The notes: generated by a model not told the origin, from the sequence alone. DNA of 64,000 nucleotides from Candidatus Iainarchaeum sp. (GCA_016867455.1 VGJJ01000001.1:3337-67336); one strand, 5' to 3'. Positions 1,865-24,422 are shown, counted from the first letter of the stretch. Program-made: numbers and translations.

Positions 1865-3058
1865 TCACTTCCGTTTGGTCTTCAATTCCCTCATTATTTT
1901 TTGGGCTTCTTTCCTCGCCCACGCGTCCGCGTGCAACACATCCTCAAAGGAAGGGTGTTTGTTATTTTTATGACGCGAAACAACTTCGCGTATGGTGCGT
2001 TGAATATCCAAAAATTCAATTTCATTTTTCAAAAATGATTCCACGCACGTGTCATTGGCTGCGTTTAACACGCAGCAAACGGTTCCTTTTTCTCGCGCCG
2101 CATCTAATCCCATTTGCAAACAATCAAATGTTTTCACGTCCGGTTGTTCGAATGTGAATTGTTTTGCTTTCACAAAATCAAATGGAGGAACGTTGAGTTT
2201 GATATGCGAAGGGTGTGTGAGTGCATACTGTATAGGAATCCTCATGTCGTGATGACCCACTTGGGCCATAATACTTCCGTCTGTGAATTCGACCATGGAG
2301 TGAATAATGGATTGGGGGTGAACCACCACATCAATTTTTTCGGCGGGAATATCATACAGCCACATGGCTTCATTGACTTCAAATCCTTTGTTCATAAGGG
2401 TAGCGGAATCAATCGTAATTTTTCCACCCATTTTCCAGGTGGGGTGGTTCAATGCTTGTTCACGTGTCACGCCTTCCAATTGGTTGAGCGTTTTTCCGCG
2501 GAAGGGGCCGCCGGAGCACGTGATAATGAGTCGCGTGACTTCATTCACGTTTTCTCCTTTCAAGCATTGAAAAATAGCCGAGTGTTCCGAATCAATGGGA
2601 GTCAAATCAATATGGTGTTTTTTTACGAGAGGCATGACGACCGCGCCCGCACTCACGAGCGTTTCCTTGTTGGCAAGTGCAATTTTTTTGCGCGCGTGAA
2701 TGGCTTCAATCGTGGGTTTCATTCCAATATTCCCCACTAATGCTTGAACAATCGTATCCGCGTTTTCCCATCGCGCGGCTTCATTCAATCCAGCGTATCC
2801 GGAAAGGACGTGCACGCTTCCCTTCATTTTTTTCTTCAACGCATCCGCTTTCGTTTCATCCACTAAGCACACGGCTTCAGGACGGTATTGGTGGACTTGT
2901 TTCTCCAATAATTCCATCGAACCATTCGCGGTGAGGACTTTCACACTAAACTCGTTGGGGTGTTGGTCCACAATATCCAATGTTTGCGTACCAATGCTTC
3001 CGGTGCTTCCTAAGATAGCTAATCGTTGATGGGGACGGGAGGGCATGAGCATAATCAT
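1865..3058 (-). CDS. dxr: 1-deoxy-D-xylulose 5-phosphate reductoisomerase (MEP pathway)
   Basis: Motifs LAILGSTGSIGTQTLDIV at the N-terminus, LANKETLV and PIDSEHSAIFQ are hallmark DXR blocks. The true start may be the Met 2 or 4 codons downstream (3052 or 3046). Confidence 0.9.
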   Translation of the reverse strand: MIMLMPSRPHQRLAILGSTGSIGTQTLDIVDQHPNEFSVKVLTANGSMELLEKQVHQYRPEAVCLVDETKADALKKKMKGSVHVLSGYAGLNEAARWENADTIVQALVGNIGMKPTIEAIHARKKIALANKETLVSAGAVVMPLVKKHHIDLTPIDSEHSAIFQCLKGENVNEVTRLIITCSGGPFRGKTLNQLEGVTREQALNHPTWKMGGKITIDSATLMNKGFEVNEAMWLYDIPAEKIDVVVHPQSIIHSMVEFTDGSIMAQVGHHDMRIPIQYALTHPSHIKLNVPPFDFVKAKQFTFEQPDVKTFDCLQMGLDAAREKGTVCCVLNAANDTCVESFLKNEIEFLDIQRTIREVVSRHKNNKHPSFEDVLHADAWARKEAQKIMRELKTKRK

Positions 3059-3210
3059 TCATGGATTGGGTTAAATATCCTCTCCCACCCCCTAAAATGA
3101 AAAAATGATGCATACAATCTACAATTGACGTAATTACCCTTGTTGCGCGTCAAAAATAACGATTGTTTTTTATGCGATTTCCAAATGAAGTAAATCATTC
3201 GACCATTTTT

Positions 3211-3215
3211 GGAGG
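3211..3215 (+). promoter_or_regulatory. Shine-Dalgarno-like GGAGG, 8 nt upstream of the ispH ATG
   Basis: The sequence ggaggattttttcATG is seen directly. It supports ATG 3224 as the start rather than the ORF-track start at 3209. Confidence 0.5.
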
Positions 3216-3223
3216 ATTTTTTC

Positions 3224-4237
3224 ATGAAGATTGAACTCGCTCGCGCCGCTGGTTTTTGTTTTGGAGTCAAACGCAGCGTAAAACTTTCTCATGAGACACT
3301 CGACCAGGGTCCCGCATTCTTGTATGGGATGCCCGTGCACAATCAGCGAGTTGTCCAGAAAATCATTGACCACGGCGGAAAACTCGTGGAAGACAATCCC
3401 TACGCCGCGTCCAAAATTTCTCGCTTTACTCATTTGAATTCCATGGATGAAATTCCGGCAGGAAGCACCGTCCTCATGCGTGCGCACGGTGTTACCGTAC
3501 AAGCATTGGAAAAAGCCAAAGAAAAAGAGTTGAAAATCGTCGACACCACCTGCCCATTCGTGACCATGGTTCACAAGACCGCAAAAGTATTGTTTGATGA
3601 AAAATACCAAGTCATTATTGTGGGCGAACATGGTCATCCGGAAGTGGAAGGAATCAAAAGTTATGCCCCCAACGCGATTGTAGTGGAAAATGCGGAAGAA
3701 GCCAGCAAATTATTCCCGCGAAAAACACAATACTACACGAATGATGAACTCATGAAAGCTAAAACCGACGCGGAAGTAGTGGAAAAATTACATTATCCCG
3801 TGTTAACGAAGATTGGAATTGTTTCCCAAACCACCCAATCAAACGACAATGTGCAAGCCGTGGCCATGGCGGTCATGGGTAAAGCTCGTGAAGTAAGAGT
3901 GTACAACACTATTTGCAATGCCATGCATGAAATGCAGCCCGGTGCGGTGCAGCTTTCCACTCAAGTTAATGTCATGCTCATTATTGGGGGAAGAAATAGT
4001 GGAAACACCAAAAGACAGGCCGAATTGTGCGCGCAGCAGACGAAAACACACTGGATTGAATCCGCGGACGAGTTGAAACCCGAATGGTTTACGAATGTAA
4101 AACACGTGGGAATAGGCGCTGGCGCCAGTACACCGGATGAAGACATTGAAGACGTGATTGCGTGGTTGAAAAAATACGACAAGGAAACGAATCACGTTGA
4201 GAGTGAAATCATCCGCCCTGCGTACGTGGTGCATTGA
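3224..4237 (+). CDS. ispH: 4-hydroxy-3-methylbut-2-enyl diphosphate reductase (IspH/LytB)
   Basis: N-terminus MKIELARAAGFCFGVKRSV is the classic LytB block. Conserved Cys residues and ~340 aa length fit. The stop overlaps the next gene. Confidence 0.9.
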   Translation: MKIELARAAGFCFGVKRSVKLSHETLDQGPAFLYGMPVHNQRVVQKIIDHGGKLVEDNPYAASKISRFTHLNSMDEIPAGSTVLMRAHGVTVQALEKAKEKELKIVDTTCPFVTMVHKTAKVLFDEKYQVIIVGEHGHPEVEGIKSYAPNAIVVENAEEASKLFPRKTQYYTNDELMKAKTDAEVVEKLHYPVLTKIGIVSQTTQSNDNVQAVAMAVMGKAREVRVYNTICNAMHEMQPGAVQLSTQVNVMLIIGGRNSGNTKRQAELCAQQTKTHWIESADELKPEWFTNVKHVGIGAGASTPDEDIEDVIAWLKKYDKETNHVESEIIRPAYVVH

Positions 4238-4251
4238 AGAAGGTAAATTCC

Positions 4252-5142
4252 ATGCCTTCCTCGCTCACTCTTTCTTCTCCCGCTAAACTCACGCTGGTAC
4301 TGGATATTATCCGCAAGCGCGAGGATGGTTATCATGAAGTCGAATTAGTGCTGCAGGAATTGGCCATCCACGACACGATAACCATTGAAGCGCTTCCTCA
4401 TTCCAGTGAAATTATTCTCTCATGCACAGACGCAAGCGTTCCCTTGAATGAGAAAAACTCGTGCCACAAAGCAACCATTCTGATGCAAAATGAATTCGCC
4501 AGCCAAAATCCTGGCAAACCTATTCAGGGAGTGAAAATTCATATTGATAAAAAAATTCCTTCCGCGGGAGGATTAGGTGGGGGAAGTTCTAACTCGGCAA
4601 CGGTTTTGAAAGGGTTGAATGAGTTGTGGCAATTGAACTTGTCCAAGAATGTTCTCAAAAATTTGGGGGCGAAGATTGGTTCCGATGAAGTATTTTTGAT
4701 TGAAGGGGGAACGTGCATTGGTTTAGGTCGCGGAGAAATCGTTGAGCCTATTGAAAAATGTCCGCGTCTTGAACTCGCTATTATTACTCCCCCTGTCAAG
4801 GTTCCTGAGAAAAAAAGTGCGTGGGTATATGGTCATTTTGACGTGAACAAAGTTTCCCATCATTATTCGATACACGAAATGAGGAAAGCCATTCGATCGA
4901 ATGATCCTCAAAAAGTGGCCGAAAAAATGGGGAATGTTTTTGAAACACTTGAACTACTGGAGTACGCGGTCGTGTTTGCCCTCATTGAAGGGTTGAAGCA
5001 AATGTCGGGCGTCCGGACGAGTATGCTCGCCGGCGCCGGACCCACCGTGGTATGCGTGTGCGACTCTCAACGGACGGCGAGTCAAATCATTGAACCTTTC
5101 CGCGCGCGCGGGTGGGTGGCATTTACCACACACACGGTTTAG
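4252..5142 (+). CDS. ispE: 4-diphosphocytidyl-2-C-methyl-D-erythritol kinase (IspE, GHMP kinase)
   Basis: N-terminus SPAKLTLVLDI...EDGYHEVELVLQ matches the IspE family (compare E. coli PAKLNLFLYI...DGYH). GHMP ATP-binding loop IPSAGGLGGGSSNSA is present. ATG 4252 is preferred over the TTG at 4234 that overlaps the ispH stop. Confidence 0.85.
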   Translation: MPSSLTLSSPAKLTLVLDIIRKREDGYHEVELVLQELAIHDTITIEALPHSSEIILSCTDASVPLNEKNSCHKATILMQNEFASQNPGKPIQGVKIHIDKKIPSAGGLGGGSSNSATVLKGLNELWQLNLSKNVLKNLGAKIGSDEVFLIEGGTCIGLGRGEIVEPIEKCPRLELAIITPPVKVPEKKSAWVYGHFDVNKVSHHYSIHEMRKAIRSNDPQKVAEKMGNVFETLELLEYAVVFALIEGLKQMSGVRTSMLAGAGPTVVCVCDSQRTASQIIEPFRARGWVAFTTHTV

Positions 5143-5712: not shown

Positions 5713-7176
5713 TCAGCGGGAACGAATACTCAGTTGTTCCCCCACTTTTTGGTCGAACATGGACAAGAATGCCGGGGCCTGTTCTACTTCTAACCGGCAT
5801 CCGGCCGCGATGCGATGACCCCCTCCTTCGGCGGTTTTTCCTAATGCTACGCACGTTTCCTTTAACGCCGCGCCCAAATTCACTCCATTGCGTACGAGTT
5901 CACTCGTCGCGCGCGCACTGACTTTAATGCTCCCATCCTCATGCCTGGAAAACGCTACAATAGGTTTGTCGGTTTTGACGCCGCCACTTCCGTATAACAT
6001 TCCCGCGACGATTCCCACAATGGAATCCTTTATTTTATTCTCCGCGTCAAAAAAATAATAATTTTCATACTCGCGCAATCCTTCCGTCTGCATGAGTTGA
6101 ATTCCTTCCGCCAAATTGCGCCGGTGTTCTTGCAACAATCCCATGGCACGTGCATAATAGTCTTCGCGGTCTCCTAAACACACGTGGAAACCAATGGTTG
6201 ATTGTCCATTTCGTCCGCACGCGTTTAATACGGTGGAATATTCTTTGGCATCCCTCAATGGAGAATACGGATTTTCCCGCGTGAGCGTGTACACTTCCCC
6301 AATGAGTTCATTCAATTTCCATTCCGGCGTGTTGTGCTCGTGCAAGTGCATCAGTATCGCGGTGGAGAGTGTTTTTTTCTCACTCGCATTCAAATCTTCA
6401 TACGCTCGCCATTTCCCACTTTCGTCTTGCAGGGGAATGTCCAAGTTTTCCAAGAATTTGATGCAATTATCTTTGTTGGCTGTCAAATTGGGGAGAATGG
6501 GGCTTGTGGAAAAAGTTAGATACTGCGCCAGGGGACGAGAGATGCGTCCATATAATCGCAAGTCCGTTTTCACGCGCAACACGTCGGCATCCACTCCTTC
6601 CTGCACCATTTGTTGATTCAATCCCAGCAATCCATTTGAACGGGAGTCCTGCATGTCCCCGCACGCGCCCACTACTCCAATGGAGGCGAGTTCCTTGTTT
6701 TTGCGGGAAATAGCTTTCGCAGTATAATAGGCAATTCCCGCACTGGAAATTTCGACTCCCCCATCTAAACCAAATTCCATGGGATTGAGGTGTTGATCAT
6801 GGGCACCGTTTCCCCGCTGATGATGATCAATAATGTAGAATTCGTTTCCGTATTCGCTTTTGAGCGTGGGAATGTAGCTCGAACCAAAGTCGGTGAAGAT
6901 GAGAGTAGCGTGCATATTTTTGAGTCGCGAAATATCCTCCGTGTATAATTGCTTGAGCGTCACTGTGTTTACCTCAATTTGCTCCCGCTGCAGGGCTTTT
7001 ACCATGATGCTCCCGCTCGTTAAACCATCACAATCATGGTGGGTCACCACCACGGCTTTGTCTAATATGCGCAACTTTTCCGCGCATGCGTCAATGCGCT
7101 CAAAAAATGCTTTAACCGCTTCATCGCGCCCTTCTTTGGAAACAAGGGCATTCAATTCCTGCACGCTTCCGCCCAT
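5713..7176 (-). CDS. DHH-family phosphoesterase, archaeal RecJ-like (GAN/Cdc45-like) nuclease
   Basis: DHH motif VTHHDCDGLTSG. DHHA1-like C-terminal GGGHRIAAG. Length ~490 aa. Confidence 0.8.
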   Translation of the reverse strand: MGGSVQELNALVSKEGRDEAVKAFFERIDACAEKLRILDKAVVVTHHDCDGLTSGSIMVKALQREQIEVNTVTLKQLYTEDISRLKNMHATLIFTDFGSSYIPTLKSEYGNEFYIIDHHQRGNGAHDQHLNPMEFGLDGGVEISSAGIAYYTAKAISRKNKELASIGVVGACGDMQDSRSNGLLGLNQQMVQEGVDADVLRVKTDLRLYGRISRPLAQYLTFSTSPILPNLTANKDNCIKFLENLDIPLQDESGKWRAYEDLNASEKKTLSTAILMHLHEHNTPEWKLNELIGEVYTLTRENPYSPLRDAKEYSTVLNACGRNGQSTIGFHVCLGDREDYYARAMGLLQEHRRNLAEGIQLMQTEGLREYENYYFFDAENKIKDSIVGIVAGMLYGSGGVKTDKPIVAFSRHEDGSIKVSARATSELVRNGVNLGAALKETCVALGKTAEGGGHRIAAGCRLEVEQAPAFLSMFDQKVGEQLSIRSR

Positions 7177-11857: not shown

Positions 11858-11928
11858 GCAGGCCGGTAACCTCCGGCCGCGCAGACAGACTACTATCGAG
11901 GGGTCTTCGACCCCTCACACCGGTTTTT
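11858..11928 (+). ncRNA. Two-hairpin sRNA-like element 'A' (GGCCGG-TAACCT-CCGGCC hairpin, GGGGTCTTCGACCCC hairpin, T5 tail)
   Basis: Two perfect hairpins followed by CACACC and TTTTT. It sits in a divergent intergenic region upstream of rpl44e. It is a paralogue of elements at 22555, 22828, 22895 and 23118. Confidence 0.3.
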
Positions 11929-11952
11929 GATCGAACTTTTGGCAAAAGTTCG
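11924..11952. terminator. AT-rich GATC palindrome TTTTTGATCGAACTTTTGGCAAAAGTTCG (family member)
   Basis: Perfect inverted repeat CGAACTTTT / AAAAGTTCG seen directly. It immediately follows the T-tract of element A. Confidence 0.45.
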
Positions 11953-12002: not shown

Positions 12003-12284
12003 ATGAAGATGCCTAAAACCAAGAAATTATACTGTAAGAAGTGTAATTCTCACACCGAACAAAAACTCAAATTGTTTAAATCCGGCCAAGCCCGCGCCAT
12101 GGCAATAGGAACGCGTCGAAATGTTCGAAAGCACAAGAAAGGTTTTGGTGGAAAGGCCAAGTTTGTGATTAAAGTCAAGAAGCAAACTAAGAAACCCGCT
12201 TTCGTAGCCGAATGCCCCACCTGTAAAAGCAAGCGCTACTACGTCATTCCCAAGCGAATGAAAAAAGTAGATATGGGCGCATAA
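12003..12284 (+). CDS. rpl44e: Ribosomal protein L44e (eL42)
   Basis: MKMPKTKKLYCKKCNSHTEQ...CPTCK. Two CxxC zinc-ribbon pairs. Basic ~93 aa protein specific to archaea and eukaryotes. Confidence 0.85.
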   Translation: MKMPKTKKLYCKKCNSHTEQKLKLFKSGQARAMAIGTRRNVRKHKKGFGGKAKFVIKVKKQTKKPAFVAECPTCKSKRYYVIPKRMKKVDMGA

Positions 12285-12480
12285 TCGGGTTTTGATCAAA
12301 CTTCATGGCATCCCAAAAGGTTTGTCATGCCAGCAAACATTGTTTGCTTGGTTCTCAAAAGTTTGATGGACATGGGCGCATAAGGTCGTTTTTTCCCCAG
12401 GCTTTTTGAAAAAGGCTGGTGGGTATGGGCGCATAAAATTAATTTTAGTGGTATTGAAATTCAACACCACGTCAACTTTT

Positions 12481-17831: not shown

Positions 17832-17997
17832 TCGTCATCCGTGTTTAAATGGATTCTTCCACGAGGAATAGTATATTGGCCTATCGAGCGCAAGCGAAGA
17901 TAGTCCGTCAACCTTTTAGCAAAAGGTTGATCAAAAGAGTGCCTACCACCGCAACGCGGTTGGTAGTCCGTTAGCGTCAACCGATAATGCGGTTGTT

Positions 17998-18080
17998 GCG
18001 GAGTTGGCAGAGCGGTCAAATGCACTGGTCTCGAAAACCAGGGCCTCACGGCTACGAGAGTTCGAATCCCTCACTCCGCG
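17998..18080 (+). tRNA. tRNA-Ser (anticodon CGA), type II with long variable arm
   Basis: Acceptor GCGGAGT/ACTCCGC. Anticodon stem CTGGT/ACCAG with loop CTCGAAA. Variable arm ~14 nt. T-arm GAGAG-TTCGAAT-CCCTC. Discriminator G. No encoded CCA. Confidence 0.8.
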
Positions 18081-18200
18081 CTTCGCGCCATTATCCATCT
18101 GGCGGGTCGGTATAGAGGTATCGCAGCGCGATACCTCGGCTGAACGTTTCTTTTTGACCGCGCACCACTTTTTCTCACTCAAAGAAAAAGGGGCGCTTCT

Positions 18201-18217
18201 GAATCCCTCACTCCGCG
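18201..18217 (+). repeat. Exact 17-nt copy of the tRNA-Ser 3' end (GAATCCCTCACTCCGCG), 120 nt downstream of the gene
   Basis: Identical to 18064..18080, seen directly. It follows an AT-rich palindrome CTTTTTCTCACTCAAAGAAAAAGG (18168-18191). Confidence 0.7.
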
Positions 18218-22518: not shown

Positions 22519-22554
22519 ACCGTTTTTAAACGCACCCACTCAAGAATGATATAC

Positions 22555-22625
22555 CAGGCCAGTTTCGGCTGGCCGCAGCGAGAGACTACTTATAAGGGAT
22601 TGCACGCAATCCCTTGAGGTAGGCT
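22555..22625 (+). ncRNA. Two-hairpin sRNA-like element 'B' (GGCCAG-TTTCGG-CTGGCC; AAGGGATTGCACGCAATCCCTT; T4 tail)
   Basis: Same architecture as element A, with compensatory changes in the stems. Confidence 0.3.
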
Positions 22626-22652
22626 TTTGATCAAACTTTTTCAAAAAGTTTG
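22625..22652. terminator. GATC palindrome TTTTGATCAAACTTTTTCAAAAAGTTTG abutting the tRNA-Ala 5' end
   Basis: Perfect 10-bp arms CAAACTTTTT / AAAAAGTTTG. The last G is nucleotide 1 of the tRNA. Confidence 0.45.
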
Positions 22653-22723
22653 GGCAAGTAGCGCAACGGTAGCGCGTCCGCTTCGCATGCGGGAGGCTGG
22701 GGGTTCGAATCCCCCCTTGTCCA
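22652..22723 (+). tRNA. tRNA-Ala (anticodon CGC) with the G3:U70 identity pair
   Basis: Acceptor GGGCAAG/CTTGTCC (position 3 G pairs with T). D-arm GCGC-AACGGTA-GCGC. Anticodon loop TTCGCAT. T-arm GGGGG-TTCGAAT-CCCCC. Discriminator A. No encoded CCA. Confidence 0.85.
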
Positions 22724-22832
22724 TCGCCCATTCCGTAGGGCGAATCCGGTATAGTGGGATAGCAGAGCTATCCCACGTCTTTTGATCAAACTTTTAGAAA
22801 AAGTTTGTTTGATTTCCCCCTTGTCCATGGCC
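22712..22832 (+). repeat. 121-nt direct repeat, copy 1: tRNA-Ala 3' end + conserved two-hairpin trailer + GATC palindrome + second copy of the tRNA 3' end CCCCCTTGTCCA
   Basis: Identical to 23001..23121, compared base by base. Internal hairpins CGCCC-ATTCCGTA-GGGCG and GTGGGATAGC-AGAG-CTATCCCAC. Confidence 0.8.
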
Positions 22833-22870
22833 TGTTTCGGAACCCTTTAGTAAAGGGTTCATCGAAATTT
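22828..22870 (+). ncRNA. Two-hairpin sRNA-like element 'E' (degenerate first hairpin; AACCCTT-TAGTA-AAGGGTT; T4 tail)
   Basis: It follows the second copy of the tRNA-Ala 3' end and is followed by the palindrome at 22868-22895. Confidence 0.25.
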
Positions 22871-22894
22871 TGATCGAACTTTTTTCAAAAGTTC

Positions 22895-22950
22895 GGCAGG
22901 CCGCCTCGAGAAACGGGTTATCGTTTCACGATAACCCCTATTTTTCTTTT
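22895..22950 (+). ncRNA. Two-hairpin sRNA-like element 'C' (GGCAGGCCGCC...; GGGTTATCG-TTTCA-CGATAACCC; T5 tail)
   Basis: Same family. Followed by the palindrome CTTTTCTTTTATCAAAAGAAAAGG (22963-22986). Confidence 0.25.
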
Positions 22951-23000
22951 GACTCCGAATTACTTTTCTTTTATCAAAAGAAAAGGAACTCTTCTGATTT

Positions 23001-23121
23001 CCCCCTTGTCCATCGCCCATTCCGTAGGGCGAATCCGGTATAGTGGGATAGCAGAGCTATCCCACGTCTTTTGATCAAACTTTTAGAAAAAGTTTGTTTG
23101 ATTTCCCCCTTGTCCATGGCC
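23001..23121 (+). repeat. 121-nt direct repeat, copy 2 (lacks the 5' two-thirds of the tRNA)
   Basis: Identical to 22712..22832. Preceded by CTTCTGA, as is the tRNA-Ser 3' copy. Confidence 0.8.
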
Positions 23122-23183
23122 GCTAACCTGCGGCCGTGCGGAAGTTAGGGAAACATGAATGTTCCCTAGACAAACTATTTTTC
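23118..23183 (+). ncRNA. Two-hairpin sRNA-like element 'D' (GGCCGC-TAACCT-GCGGCC; AGGGAAACAT-GAA-TGTTCCCT; ACA; T5 tail)
   Basis: Closest relative of element A: same TAACCT loop, and an ACA triplet after hairpin 2. Confidence 0.3.
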
Positions 23184-23199
23184 GCCAACCATTTTTATA

Positions 23200-23778
23200 G
23201 TGCAATTCACTCGTACACGCATGCATTTCCCTATTCGCTTGCTCATTGGTCTTGTTTTCTTGGTGATGATTTCACCAACGATTTTTGCGGCAGATGTTTA
23301 CATTCTTCGCGCTATCACAGTCCCCCAAACGTATTTGACGGGATATGTGGATGTGGAGATTACGATTGAAAATGTGCAATTCAATCAACAAGGATATGGT
23401 GCTGCATCCTCGGGCAATCAATTGATCCATACCTCGATTCGAAATGACAAAGGGCAATTTCTCCCAGGTTTTGATGACTATCAAACATCTATCCCATTGC
23501 CCGCCGCAATAAATGTGATCAACGTGACAATTCCCCAATCTTCATTGAACGCGGGGGAAATATACACTATTCAAGCGAGTATTGATCCATACAATCCAAA
23601 TGGAACAACATACGATGAAACCACTAAAGGAAATAATTCCGCACGCAAGACATTTACCGTATTAAAAGCTCCGCAAACGTATCAAGTTCCCGACATGCCA
23701 TTCGAATTATCCTTCGCGGGCATGTTGCTCGTGTTGAGCGGATTATTTTATTATGGTCGAGTGAAAAAAAATAATTAA
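23200..23778 (+). CDS. Secreted protein with signal peptide and C-terminal TM anchor plus basic tail
   Basis: Signal peptide MHFPIRLLIGLVFLVMISPTIFA. C-terminal FAGMLLVLSGLFYYGRVKKNN. Several N-x-S/T sequons. Confidence 0.55.
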   Translation: MQFTRTRMHFPIRLLIGLVFLVMISPTIFAADVYILRAITVPQTYLTGYVDVEITIENVQFNQQGYGAASSGNQLIHTSIRNDKGQFLPGFDDYQTSIPLPAAINVINVTIPQSSLNAGEIYTIQASIDPYNPNGTTYDETTKGNNSARKTFTVLKAPQTYQVPDMPFELSFAGMLLVLSGLFYYGRVKKNN

Positions 23779-23832
23779 TTATCTCGACCAAGCAAAATTA
23801 AACTAACTAATTTTCTTGCCGGTTCTGCCAAA

Positions 23833-23861
23833 CAAACTTTTTAGAAAAAGTTTGATCAAAA
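23833..23861. terminator. GATC palindrome in reverse orientation (CAAACTTTTTAGAAAAAGTTTGATCAAAAA) at the 3' ends of convergent genes (secreted protein and ferredoxin)
   Basis: Perfect inverted repeat with flanking T- and A-runs. It lies between convergent genes. Confidence 0.45.
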
Positions 23862-23864
23862 ATA

Positions 23865-24143
23865 CTAAATAATTTTCTTGCCAGTTTTGTCAAACAAGTG
23901 AATCACATTCACGGGGCAAGAGTCCGCGGCTTCCTTGTTGGGAGTATACTGTGCTTGGGCAATGTCTCTTTGTTCACCATCTTCTCCGCTTTCGAGTTTG
24001 ATGTGAATGGATCCCTTCAAGTTGCTCTTTCCATCCACGGGGGACATTTCCCAATAATCCGGTGCCACGGCTGCGCAGGCCCCGCATCCAATACAATTGG
24101 GTCGGTCGTGTTTGATTTGATAGTCGGGCATAGGATATTCCAC
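23865..24143 (-). CDS. Small [4Fe-4S] ferredoxin
   Basis: CIGCGACAAVAP...CPV cluster-binding pattern (CxxCxxC...CP). 92 aa. Confidence 0.7.
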   Translation of the reverse strand: MEYPMPDYQIKHDRPNCIGCGACAAVAPDYWEMSPVDGKSNLKGSIHIKLESGEDGEQRDIAQAQYTPNKEAADSCPVNVIHLFDKTGKKII

Positions 24144-24290
24144 CTCAATTCGGAATGGTTATACTAAAAACGCGCAAAAAGTAATTTTAAAGGTATAGGA
24201 ACAAATCACGAAAATCCCTCCCATTAGCGAAATTACGGGCGTTTATGTTTTCAGTTTATAACGGTTTTCCGACCGTGATTGTAGTGAAAT

Positions 24291-24363
24291 AGCCCCATCG
24301 TCTAGTGGTCAAGGATATGGGACTCTGACTCCCAGGACCTGCGTTCGAATCGCAGTGGGGCTA
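24291..24363 (+). tRNA. tRNA-Gln (anticodon CTG)
   Basis: Acceptor AGCCCCA/TGGGGCT. Anticodon stem TGGGA/TCCCA with loop CTCTGAC. T-arm CTGCG-TTCGAAT-CGCAG. Discriminator A. T-tract immediately downstream. Confidence 0.8.
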
Positions 24364-24422
24364 TTTTTATTTTCACGCCACCCATTAAATACTAGAAAAT
24401 CGTTAATCACGTCCGGATACGC

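Follow-up and report, generated by a model that had tools for sequence, protein, structure and literature searches.

The 3′ end of a tRNA-Ser gene, repeated downstream of the gene behind a series of hairpins, is probably the gene-less footprint of small integrative elements of tyrosine-integrase type origin, a reading we draw from comparison of sequences. The locus lies in a stretch of 64,000 nucleotides, here called the window, from a DPANN archaeon of the Iainarchaeota (Diapherotrites). Comparable units stand behind tRNA-Ala and behind two protein genes, and the targets of insertion are perhaps the 3′ ends of tRNA genes and of a few short protein genes.

ARAGORN and Rfam identify three tRNA genes in the window, for tRNA-Ser(CGA), tRNA-Ala(CGC) and tRNA-Gln (Table 1). 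The 17-mer GAATCCCTCACTCCGCG at the 3′ end of tRNA-Ser (18064-18080) is found again at 18201-18217 with 17 of 17 nucleotides matching; these are its only two sites in 64 kb when up to three mismatches are allowed (0.12 expected by chance), and none of 100 shuffles contained two or more occurrences. The insert of about 120 nt between the gene and this copy has no ORF and holds two T5 runs upstream of the copy, and the flank beyond the copy leads into the same neighbour gene as in the related locus L123, which has no insert. The linker box CGGTATAG has three sites in the window where 0.38 are expected, all at the equivalent position 3′ of tRNA-Ser or tRNA-Ala. On the 5′ side, an inverted hairpin unit occupies the space between the promoter and tRNA-Ser; in L124 the TATA box lies 26 nt from tRNA-Ser without an upstream hairpin insert. 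Read on the minus strand, the hairpins at 17942-17995 make up an hp1-linker(GGACTAC)-hp2 unit. The covariance model described below gives no score on this stretch of the window, and it recognizes inverted copies 5′ of tRNA-Ser in L123 (4864-4929) and L130 (2852-2894). All the tRNA-Ser elements listed in an earlier note on this DNA (hairpins, box, palindrome, CTTCTGA and 17-nt copy) lie where that note had placed them.

Table 1. Coordinates of the tRNA genes, protein genes, hairpin units and end copies in the window
Feature	Position	Strand	Remarks
L44e gene (ribosomal protein)	12003-12284	+	3′ end and two downstream copies span 12270..12436
P-type palindrome TCAACCTTTTAGCAAAAGGTTGATCAAAA	17908..17936	.	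Upstream of tRNA-Ser; part of inverted hairpin unit
Two hairpins, 17942-17966 and 17978-17995	17942..17995	-	Adjoin tRNA-Ser 5′ end
tRNA-Ser(CGA)	17998..18081	+	3′ end same as that of integrase-bearing tRNA-Ser genes of relatives
hp1 CGCCA-ttatccatc-TGGCG	18086..18104	+	3′ of tRNA-Ser
Linker CGGTATAG (18108-18115) and hp2 GAGGTATCG/CGATACCTC (18115-18137)	18108..18137	+	
T-rich stretch of tRNA-Ser unit	18144..18158	+	
T-rich stretch with hp3, an AT-rich palindrome with GC clamp (GACCGCGCACC...GGGGCGC)	18144..18197	+	hp3 core 18168-18190; module type B
CTTCTGA	18196..18202	+	Before tRNA-Ser end copy
Pseudo-T-loop junction CTTCT/GAAT and exact 17-nt tRNA-Ser end copy	18196..18217	+	
H-type hairpin unit and P palindrome	22557..22652	+	hp1′ 22557-22574, linker GAGACTAC, hp2′ 22594-22615, P palindrome 22624-22652
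tRNA-Ala(CGC)	22651..22725	+	
Unit Ua	22726..22828	+	hp1 (CGCCC/GGGCG), CCGGTATAG, hp2 22754-22776, P palindrome 22779-22807, end copy 1 22810-22828
Unit Ub	22829..23013	+	Split hp1 holding two nested P-type palindromes (22840-22860, 22867-22895)
Unit Ub, continued		+	hp2 22915-22937, T-rich stretch, hp3 type A 22963-22985
Unit Ub, far end		+	CTTCTGA 22991-22997, end copy 2 22995-23013
Second Ua copy, then terminal hp1-linker-hp2 trailer	23014..23176	+	End copy 3 23099-23117; trailer 23118-23176
Ferredoxin gene	23865-24143	-	Gene end and repeat span 23802..23897
tRNA-Gln	24290-24364		Without end copy

The locus behind tRNA-Ala, which the earlier note described correctly, is richer than it had noted, with three copies of the tRNA end (22810-22828, 22995-23013 and 23099-23117; matches of 13-19 nt) and a block of 126 nt that is present twice, the two occurrences being 289 nt out of step (22707-22832 and 22996-23121, 98% identical). 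All three copies carry common private substitutions (GATTTCCCCC), which indicates that some of them arose from each other. Upstream, an H-type unit and a P palindrome are inserted between a TATA-like box at 22523-22530 and tRNA-Ala; in L136 the same promoter lies directly before the tRNA.

The pattern extends to protein genes. When the window was screened for short direct repeats 20-600 nt apart, tRNA-Ser, tRNA-Ala and the gene for ribosomal protein L44e stood out. Downstream of L44e there are two further copies of its final 12-15 nt, which include the stop codon (GACATGGGCGCATAA at 12369-12383 and TATGGGCGCATAA at 12424-12436); gene end and copies are separated by an 84-nt P-type element and by a 38-nt T-run with palindrome. 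Similarly, the ferredoxin gene has a second copy of its final 34 nt (23864-23897) at 23802-23835 with 88% identity, and the interval between the gene end and its copy is occupied by a T-run and a P palindrome (23833-23861).

A HerA-like protein encoded between the two tRNA genes led to 21 loci in MAGs labelled Candidatus Iainarchaeum, Diapherotrites or archaeon, and the close relatives include both filled and empty sites for Ser, Ala, Gln, L44e and ferredoxin. The tRNA-Ser end copy is present in the window and absent from L123, L124, L130 and L224; that of tRNA-Ala is present in L124, L125 and L127 and absent from L123, L128, L131, L132 and L136; that of tRNA-Gln is present in L127 and L128 and absent from the window. 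The L44e end copy occurs in L123, L124, L226, L227 and L229 and is missing in L130, L224 and L225, and the ferredoxin repeat is missing in L136. From gene to copy the modules follow a set order of hp1, a linker starting CCGR, hp2, T-run, palindrome and a mutated T-loop (TTC-T-GAAT, TTCCCGAAT or TTTGATT). T-run and palindrome alone make up the shortest units, of about 40 nt, and the inserts between gene end and copy measure 29-290 bp. The window and L127 share 89% identity in module type B, which stands behind tRNA-Ser in the former and behind tRNA-Ala in the latter, and 85% identity in module type A; their HerA proteins are only 62% identical. Arrays also differ in composition, with different unit types combined in that of L127 and a 110-nt unit duplicated in tandem in L125.

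The boundaries of the repeats are informative about their origin. The identity blocks are 12-34 nt long and their right boundary is always the gene end (the discriminator, or the stop codon with 0-1 nt added). Ser, Ala and Gln share one breakpoint position in the T-loop, including the extra T. Gene ends and copies can represent different alleles: the tRNA-Gln copy of L128 agrees with the L127 allele, unlike the resident gene end; L44e of L124 ends in GGAGCCTAG and its copy retains GGCGCAT; and in L226 the two L44e copies share two positions at which they depart from the gene end. Elsewhere the palindromes occur without a flanking direct repeat (at 11932, 17908 and 22632 of the window, and in L125, L130 and L127). 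Taken together, blocks that always end at the gene end, a flank that resumes after the copy, palindromes without repeats at other sites and differing alleles point to site-specific recombination within the gene, with a replacement gene end brought by an element. Identity that stops at the gene end is the classical signature of a replacement end carried by an element (PMC4383910).

The source is a MAG, and repeats like these interrupt assembly from short reads: the beginning of Logan contig L001 falls within the Ala array, and the L127 sequence contains N gaps close by. An assembly artefact is nevertheless hardly credible, because the distal Ala array and the ferredoxin repeat are recovered in L001, an independent Logan assembly, and the same architecture appears in independent MAGs, assemblers and studies. 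Moreover, the 17-nt repeat is shorter than the usual k-mer length, and the junction sequences are unique and must be present in the reads.

The hairpins themselves show clear evidence of covariation. In an alignment of 14 trailers from related Iainarchaeota MAGs, with shuffles and slid pairings as controls, 87.6% of the cells of hp1 and hp2 are paired, compared to 62% in shuffles and at most 48% in slid controls, and both-sided changes are seen in 13 of the 15 pairs. The tRNA-Ser unit likewise folds better than its own shuffles (z -3.4). The covariation implies that the hairpins are selected or recently copied structures. A covariance model, which the earlier note had suggested building, was used to scan 342 kb and then a further 162 kb with significance set at E below 0.01, and it located further copies; all significant matches are beside tRNA-Ser, tRNA-Ala or L44e, except one at 1488-1530 of L227. 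Several are inverted and either adjoin the tRNA-Ser 5′ end or lie between L44e and its copy, an interval in which the hairpin unit occurs in either orientation. Hairpin units are also seen without any end copy and 5′ of tRNAs, so that part of the architecture may be native flank. All perfect hairpins in the 64 kb with a stem of at least 9 bp are confined to these few intergenic spots, which argues that they are not general terminators.

These structural data have to be weighed against the possibility that the insert encodes a functional co-transcribed trailer RNA like E. coli RrA/B/F, in which the end copy would be a processing signal that sets the 3′ end of an sRNA. Strong covariation in hp1 and hp2, folding beyond that of shuffles and the 85-89% conservation of modules across diverged genomes are consistent with such an RNA, as is the precedent of the E. 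coli tRNA-linked repeats (TLRs), whose final 18-19 nt repeat those of the preceding tRNA or rRNA and which include processed sRNAs located between two terminators (PMC8144298). We nonetheless consider this explanation improbable, since the stems have no excess of G-U over A-C (5 vs 7 of 237 cells), the presence of the units is patchy even among close relatives and sister species, end copies also follow protein-coding genes and there end at the stop codon, and the unit is found inverted. The box CGGTATAG is limited to one subfamily, the others having CCGAGAAAC, CCGAATTCG or CGGAAGTTA at the linker position, and Rfam reports only tRNA in the region, with no other family even at E up to 10. The two T5 runs upstream of the copy, which are generally regarded as archaeal terminator signals, argue against efficient read-through, and the end copy has no pairing partner of its own, while archaeal RNase Z recognizes its substrates by tRNA shape. 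A further observation that goes against an RNA trailer is that the 17-mer is the end of an integrase-adjacent tRNA-Ser in relatives. Thus, the compensatory stem changes claimed in the earlier note stand, but their interpretation as a selected RNA trailer or processing signal is not supported. Its proposal that the shared flank organization is systematic is borne out by recurrence behind tRNA-Ala, tRNA-Ser and tRNA-Gln in related genomes, and because the evidence speaks against an RNA trailer the systematic mechanism is most likely DNA recombination rather than RNA maturation.

Recombination or transposition could in principle take several forms. One is that palindromic elements similar to MITEs or REPs transpose and generate long target-site duplications. 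Small palindromes of many kinds are present, one family has ends resembling terminal inverted repeats (TTTTGATCAAACTT...AAGTTTGAT), palindromes lie nested within another hairpin's loop, units are found in both orientations, and a GTAGTCC motif beside the hairpins recalls the GTAG head of REPs. Transposition of this kind is quite unlikely given that the same palindromes occur elsewhere without a flanking direct repeat, that a duplication of constant length around every palindrome copy, as expected of a MITE, was not found (the lengths range from 12 to 34 nt), and that random insertion does not predict a right-hand boundary that always coincides with the gene end. The window also lacks a transposase. 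Casposons likewise involve the 3′ end of a tRNA gene, the T-loop region and a direct repeat, but they make a fixed 15-bp duplication with only 5 bp of overlap with the tRNA (PMC5137440), a pattern that does not fit duplications of 12-34 nt lying wholly inside the gene, and their terminal inverted repeats, Cas1 and PolB are all missing from the window.

Local duplication could also proceed without any mobile element, by unequal crossing-over or slippage between palindromes, with tandem gene copies eroding to 12-34 nt. Palindromes adjoin the tRNA 5′ end and the end copies alike, tandem repeats are clear in the 289-nt period of the window and the 110-nt unit of L125, and the private substitutions common to the three Ala copies fit such a process. 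As a general account it appears very unlikely, because larger gene remnants are never seen, the breakpoint in the T-loop with its extra T is the same for Ser, Ala and Gln, one array can combine different unit types (L127), one unit type is found behind different genes in different genomes, and the linkage to integrases is left unexplained.

Additional candidates were considered and rejected. The tRNA-Ser unit has CUGA but no UGAUGA for a C/D box sRNA, in which box C is RUGAUGA and box D is CUGA. DGRs, group II introns and IS200/IS605 or IS110 insertions are not known to produce junctions with a long duplication of a gene end, and these too were set aside. Nor is a cDNA of a mature RNA the source of the copies, as the tRNA copies are not followed by CCA and those of the protein genes finish with the stop codon. 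In the minimum free energy fold of a precursor, the copy is paired with the 5′ acceptor strand and TTGACCGC with the D-arm; this long-range pairing is uninformative because the copy does not differ from the true end and complementarity over 8 nt is near chance. A split or permuted tRNA gene (compare PMC3218864) or a T-loop intron is not indicated, since both tRNAs are complete (54.7 and 68.9 bits) and no 5′ half follows any copy.

The connection to integrases, which is the decisive evidence, comes from relatives. Following homologues of L44e into their own contigs led to L230, which encodes a tyrosine integrase of 443 aa (PF00589, E 4.8e-27) whose start lies 62 nt beyond tRNA-Ser(CGA). Its homologues in archaeal MAGs are 37-66% identical, and in three of the four homologues whose contigs were read the integrase lies directly behind a tRNA gene. 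The integrase follows tRNA-Ser(GCT) by about 60 nt in L234, from the same MAG as L130 and L136, and tRNA-Ser(TGA) by about 60 nt in L235 and L236; in L237 it lies 226 nt after tRNA-Cys, beside small ORFs and a terminase gene. The fourth and most distant homologue is on a virus-like contig (L241) without a tRNA gene, which has arm-type repeats but no tRNA-like core. The tRNA-Ser genes of L234, L235 and L236 end in exactly the 17-mer that is duplicated in the window. In addition, the hp1 loop TTATCCA(T/C) of the window trailer recurs in relatives, in the hairpin that separates tRNA-Ser from the start codon of the integrase, the motif TTATCCA being invariant; beyond it the window unit has no similarity to the integrase-proximal sequence.

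L232 connects the two ends. Its tRNA-Ser(CGA) is followed by the integrase-proximal sequence common to L230, L234 and L235 without the integrase gene, and further on by one ORF, a degenerate end copy, hairpin units, a T-run, the palindrome CCAACCTTTTTCCAAAAGGTTGG, TTCTGAATCTCTCACTCCGCG and an hp1-type trailer. At its far end this decayed element has a T-run, a palindrome, TTCTGAATC and then a tRNA-end copy. The module made of T-run, palindrome and GGTTCTGAATC is found before the tRNA-Gln end copy of L128 as well, and it resembles the units of the window. In L237 the stretch from tRNA-Cys to the integrase gene contains two units of 79 nt, each with a stub-like sequence at its end.

Among the approximately 57 ORFs of the window there is no integrase, transposase, other recombinase or Cas1, and no match to PF00589. 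No integrase adjoins L44e or ferredoxin in 10 loci, and in L230, L234 and L235 a search for a distal end copy or second att site gave none up to 10 kb from the integrase, so that no complete element bounded by its two ends could be read. In viral contigs the integrase profile retrieved only proteins of 23-27% identity; attP-like strings joining TTCTGAATC to a tRNA-Ala or tRNA-Gln end and the module type A/B pattern were not found there, and the loose pattern CGCC..GGCG..CGGTATAG gave chance matches only. BLAST of both tRNA loci against phage and plasmid collections matched the tRNA bodies alone. A search of JGI metagenomes with the module pattern returned 81 stretches, of which only L152 is from a true relative.

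In the mechanism we propose, tyrosine-integrase elements would insert into the segment of a tRNA gene that runs from the T-loop to the 3′ end. The element would bring its own copy of the gene end and so regenerate the tRNA, and the old gene end would be displaced to the far side of the insert and left as a short direct repeat. The copy at 18201-18217 would then be the displaced att-type end of tRNA-Ser, and CTTCT/GAAT, a T-loop with one extra T, would be the junction between arm and core. The roughly 120 nt from the tRNA to the copy may be the fused remains of both element arms from which the genes have gone, with hp1, linker and hp2 forming the putative tRNA-side arm and the T-run and palindrome the far-side arm. 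The tRNA-Ala array could be several units in series, one of them duplicated in tandem. The hairpins are presumably arm or terminator sequences of the element, and the copies at L44e and ferredoxin may have arisen by the same route as those at the tRNAs. The units may be dead remnants trimmed by deletion or non-autonomous mini-elements moved in trans by an integrase encoded elsewhere.

Several considerations count against an integrase origin. Inserts of 29-290 bp are too small to circularize as double-stranded DNA, and a unit in either orientation at L44e is unusual for a single attP. The remnant route would require repeated and rather precise deletions, and mobilization in trans would require an intermediate of a new kind. 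More speculatively, and with real doubt on our part, the units could be active, miniature, gene-less site-specific cassettes, each consisting of two attP arms and a replacement gene end, that are moved in trans among the tRNA and short protein genes of Iainarchaeota by the integrase of a full-length relative (a virus or island) and that supply the terminator of the regenerated gene. The same origin could then explain the enterobacterial tRNA-linked repeats.

Comparison with known systems helps to separate what is ordinary here from what is not. Integrative elements that are cis-mobilizable or otherwise non-autonomous are flanked by att sites and lack an integrase of their own, and the known examples are kilobases long. 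Like these elements and MITEs, the window unit is bounded by att-like repeats and has no recombinase, and family members are alike across diverged genomes; unlike the known non-autonomous elements, the units measure 40-290 bp and are known from their sequence alone. Islands and proviruses integrated at tRNA genes leave a regenerated target and a displaced fragment (Islander, PMC4383910; archaeal examples, PMC9897764). The window shares with them a direct repeat that spans the tRNA T-loop to the exact gene end, an ancestral flank that resumes after the copy, units that pile up in tandem, presence that varies among relatives, and one integrase family located directly behind relatives' tRNA-Ser genes with the same 3′ end. 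It differs from such islands, which span kilobases, in that its inserts of 29-290 bp are gene-less with no integrase within 64 kb, that its units are made of conserved covarying hairpin modules, and that similar copies stand behind two protein-coding genes. The E. coli TLRs (Egan and Landy 1978; Rudd 1999), whose origin is unexplained (summarized in PMC8144298), are also short non-coding units immediately 3′ of a tRNA or rRNA gene, in which the last ~18 nt equal the end of that gene, with one to five units per locus and terminators nearby. The differences are the archaeal host, hairpin modules common to different tRNAs, units behind protein genes and a visible link to integrases; TLRs were compared by description, with no sequence similarity detected or expected. 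In sum, the att duplication at a tRNA gene is the ordinary part of these loci, and what is unusual is the size of the units, their modular covarying hairpins, their spread over several tRNAs and two protein genes, and their occurrence in a DPANN genome.

Integrative elements classically land in tRNA genes, and a displaced tRNA fragment is normally the sign of an island of kilobase size. If the units described here are only remnants, they are a record of a streamlined genome erasing its islands down to the arm sequences, which may then act as terminators, and they warn annotators that covarying hairpins linked to tRNAs are not necessarily RNAs. Should they still be mobile, they would rank as the smallest known elements that depend on an integrase and would offer a testable origin for the tRNA-linked repeats of E. 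coli. The identification of an Iainarchaeota integrase family that targets tRNA-Ser and tRNA-Cys provides a way into the mobilome of this phylum, which is scarcely known.

End copies, the short downstream direct repeats of a gene's 3' end, are found at protein genes as well, those for L44e and ferredoxin. Behind the L44e gene of the window the spacing is made up of a palindromic element of 84 nt and a 38-nt stretch consisting of a T-run plus palindrome. Among contig stretches of related Iainarchaeota assemblies (L-numbers), L44e end copies are also present in L123, L124, L226, L227 and L229, and the site is empty in L130, L224 and L225. The ferredoxin gene end is separated from its copy by a T-run and a palindrome of the P family; the copy retains a stop codon but differs non-synonymously at three places, and is not found in L136.

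Protein-gene ends in the window that are repeated downstream
Feature	Window position	Strand	Description
L44e gene end and copies	12003-12436		ribosomal protein gene; final 12-15 nt with stop codon present twice more, downstream
Ferredoxin gene end and copy	23802-23897	minus	final 34 nt repeated, 88% identity

Palindromes of the P type are also nested within the loops of other hairpins (window 22838-22896; L227 10300-10370). The hosts are the first trailer hairpin, hp1, of Ub, the second repeat unit behind tRNA-Ala, in the window and the second trailer hairpin, hp2, of the unit trailing L44e in L227. No duplication was found at the flanks of either nested palindrome, and therefore these small palindromes may insert independently. 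Two near-identical P sequences of 29 bp, at 23068-23096 and 23833-23861 and inverted relative to each other, flank an ORF of 192 aa (23200-23778), which has no Pfam match and whose ends can be read from the sequence as putatively signal-peptide-like and C-terminal-anchor-like. The entire segment 23068-23861 is missing from L136, and its arrangement recalls small modules with recombinase sites at both borders. A further motif, GTAGTCC (reverse complement GGACTAC), repeatedly adjoins hairpins in the window (11881-11890, 17901-17910, 17963-17972 and 22583-22590) and in L123, L130, L152 and L227; it is reminiscent of the GTAG head found in REP elements of bacteria.

Upstream of the tRNA genes in some relatives (L124, L136, L224) a TATA-like box lies ~26-35 nt from the tRNA 5' end, which suggests that these tRNAs would be transcribed near-leaderless. 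In the window, hairpin units spanning 95-125 nt in all are inserted between the TATA-like box and the tRNA (22523-22652 and 17843-17997), and at many Iainarchaeota loci (L132, L142, L234) the spacing between hairpins and tRNA 5' ends is zero.

Close relatives differ in how tRNA-Ala is oriented with respect to the adjoining HerA-like gene (window, L136 and L132 versus L123, L124, L125, L128 and L131), and one trailer type lies 3' of tRNA-Ala in L131 and L128 and 5' of it in the window; together these differences imply local inversion or rearrangement at this locus. In the window tRNA-Ser(CGA) (17998-18081) the T stem contains an A-C mismatch and the acceptor stem is GCGGAGT/ACTCCGC. Except in the anticodon arm, this tRNA almost matches tRNA-Ser(TGA) of L235, and tRNA-Ser(CGA) in the genomes closest to the window (L123, L124, L130) carries GGAGAGA in place of GCGGAGT. 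Replacement or conversion of the window gene is a possible explanation.

The mevalonate route is the usual isoprenoid pathway in Archaea. Genes of the bacterial-type MEP pathway, for DXP reductoisomerase, LytB/IspH and a GHMP kinase, are clustered at 1865-5142 of the window and likewise in L224, L227 and L232, with IspD close by in L227. L225 (1759-4761) encodes a DHH/DHHA1 (RecJ-like) protein of 1000 aa with intein and LAGLIDADG domains; the window orthologue (5713-7176, 487 aa) is without the intein.

The family of tyrosine integrases (PF00589) encoded directly behind tRNA-Ser or tRNA-Cys genes in relatives marks, at tRNA-Cys (L237 10001-16200), a provirus that has a terminase gene and, at tRNA-Ser(TGA) (L235 10001-21332), an island whose domains include ArdC-N/M78 peptidase, PLD-like and, from conflict systems, MC2/CTD6. 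This provirus and this island are candidate mobile elements of Iainarchaeota.
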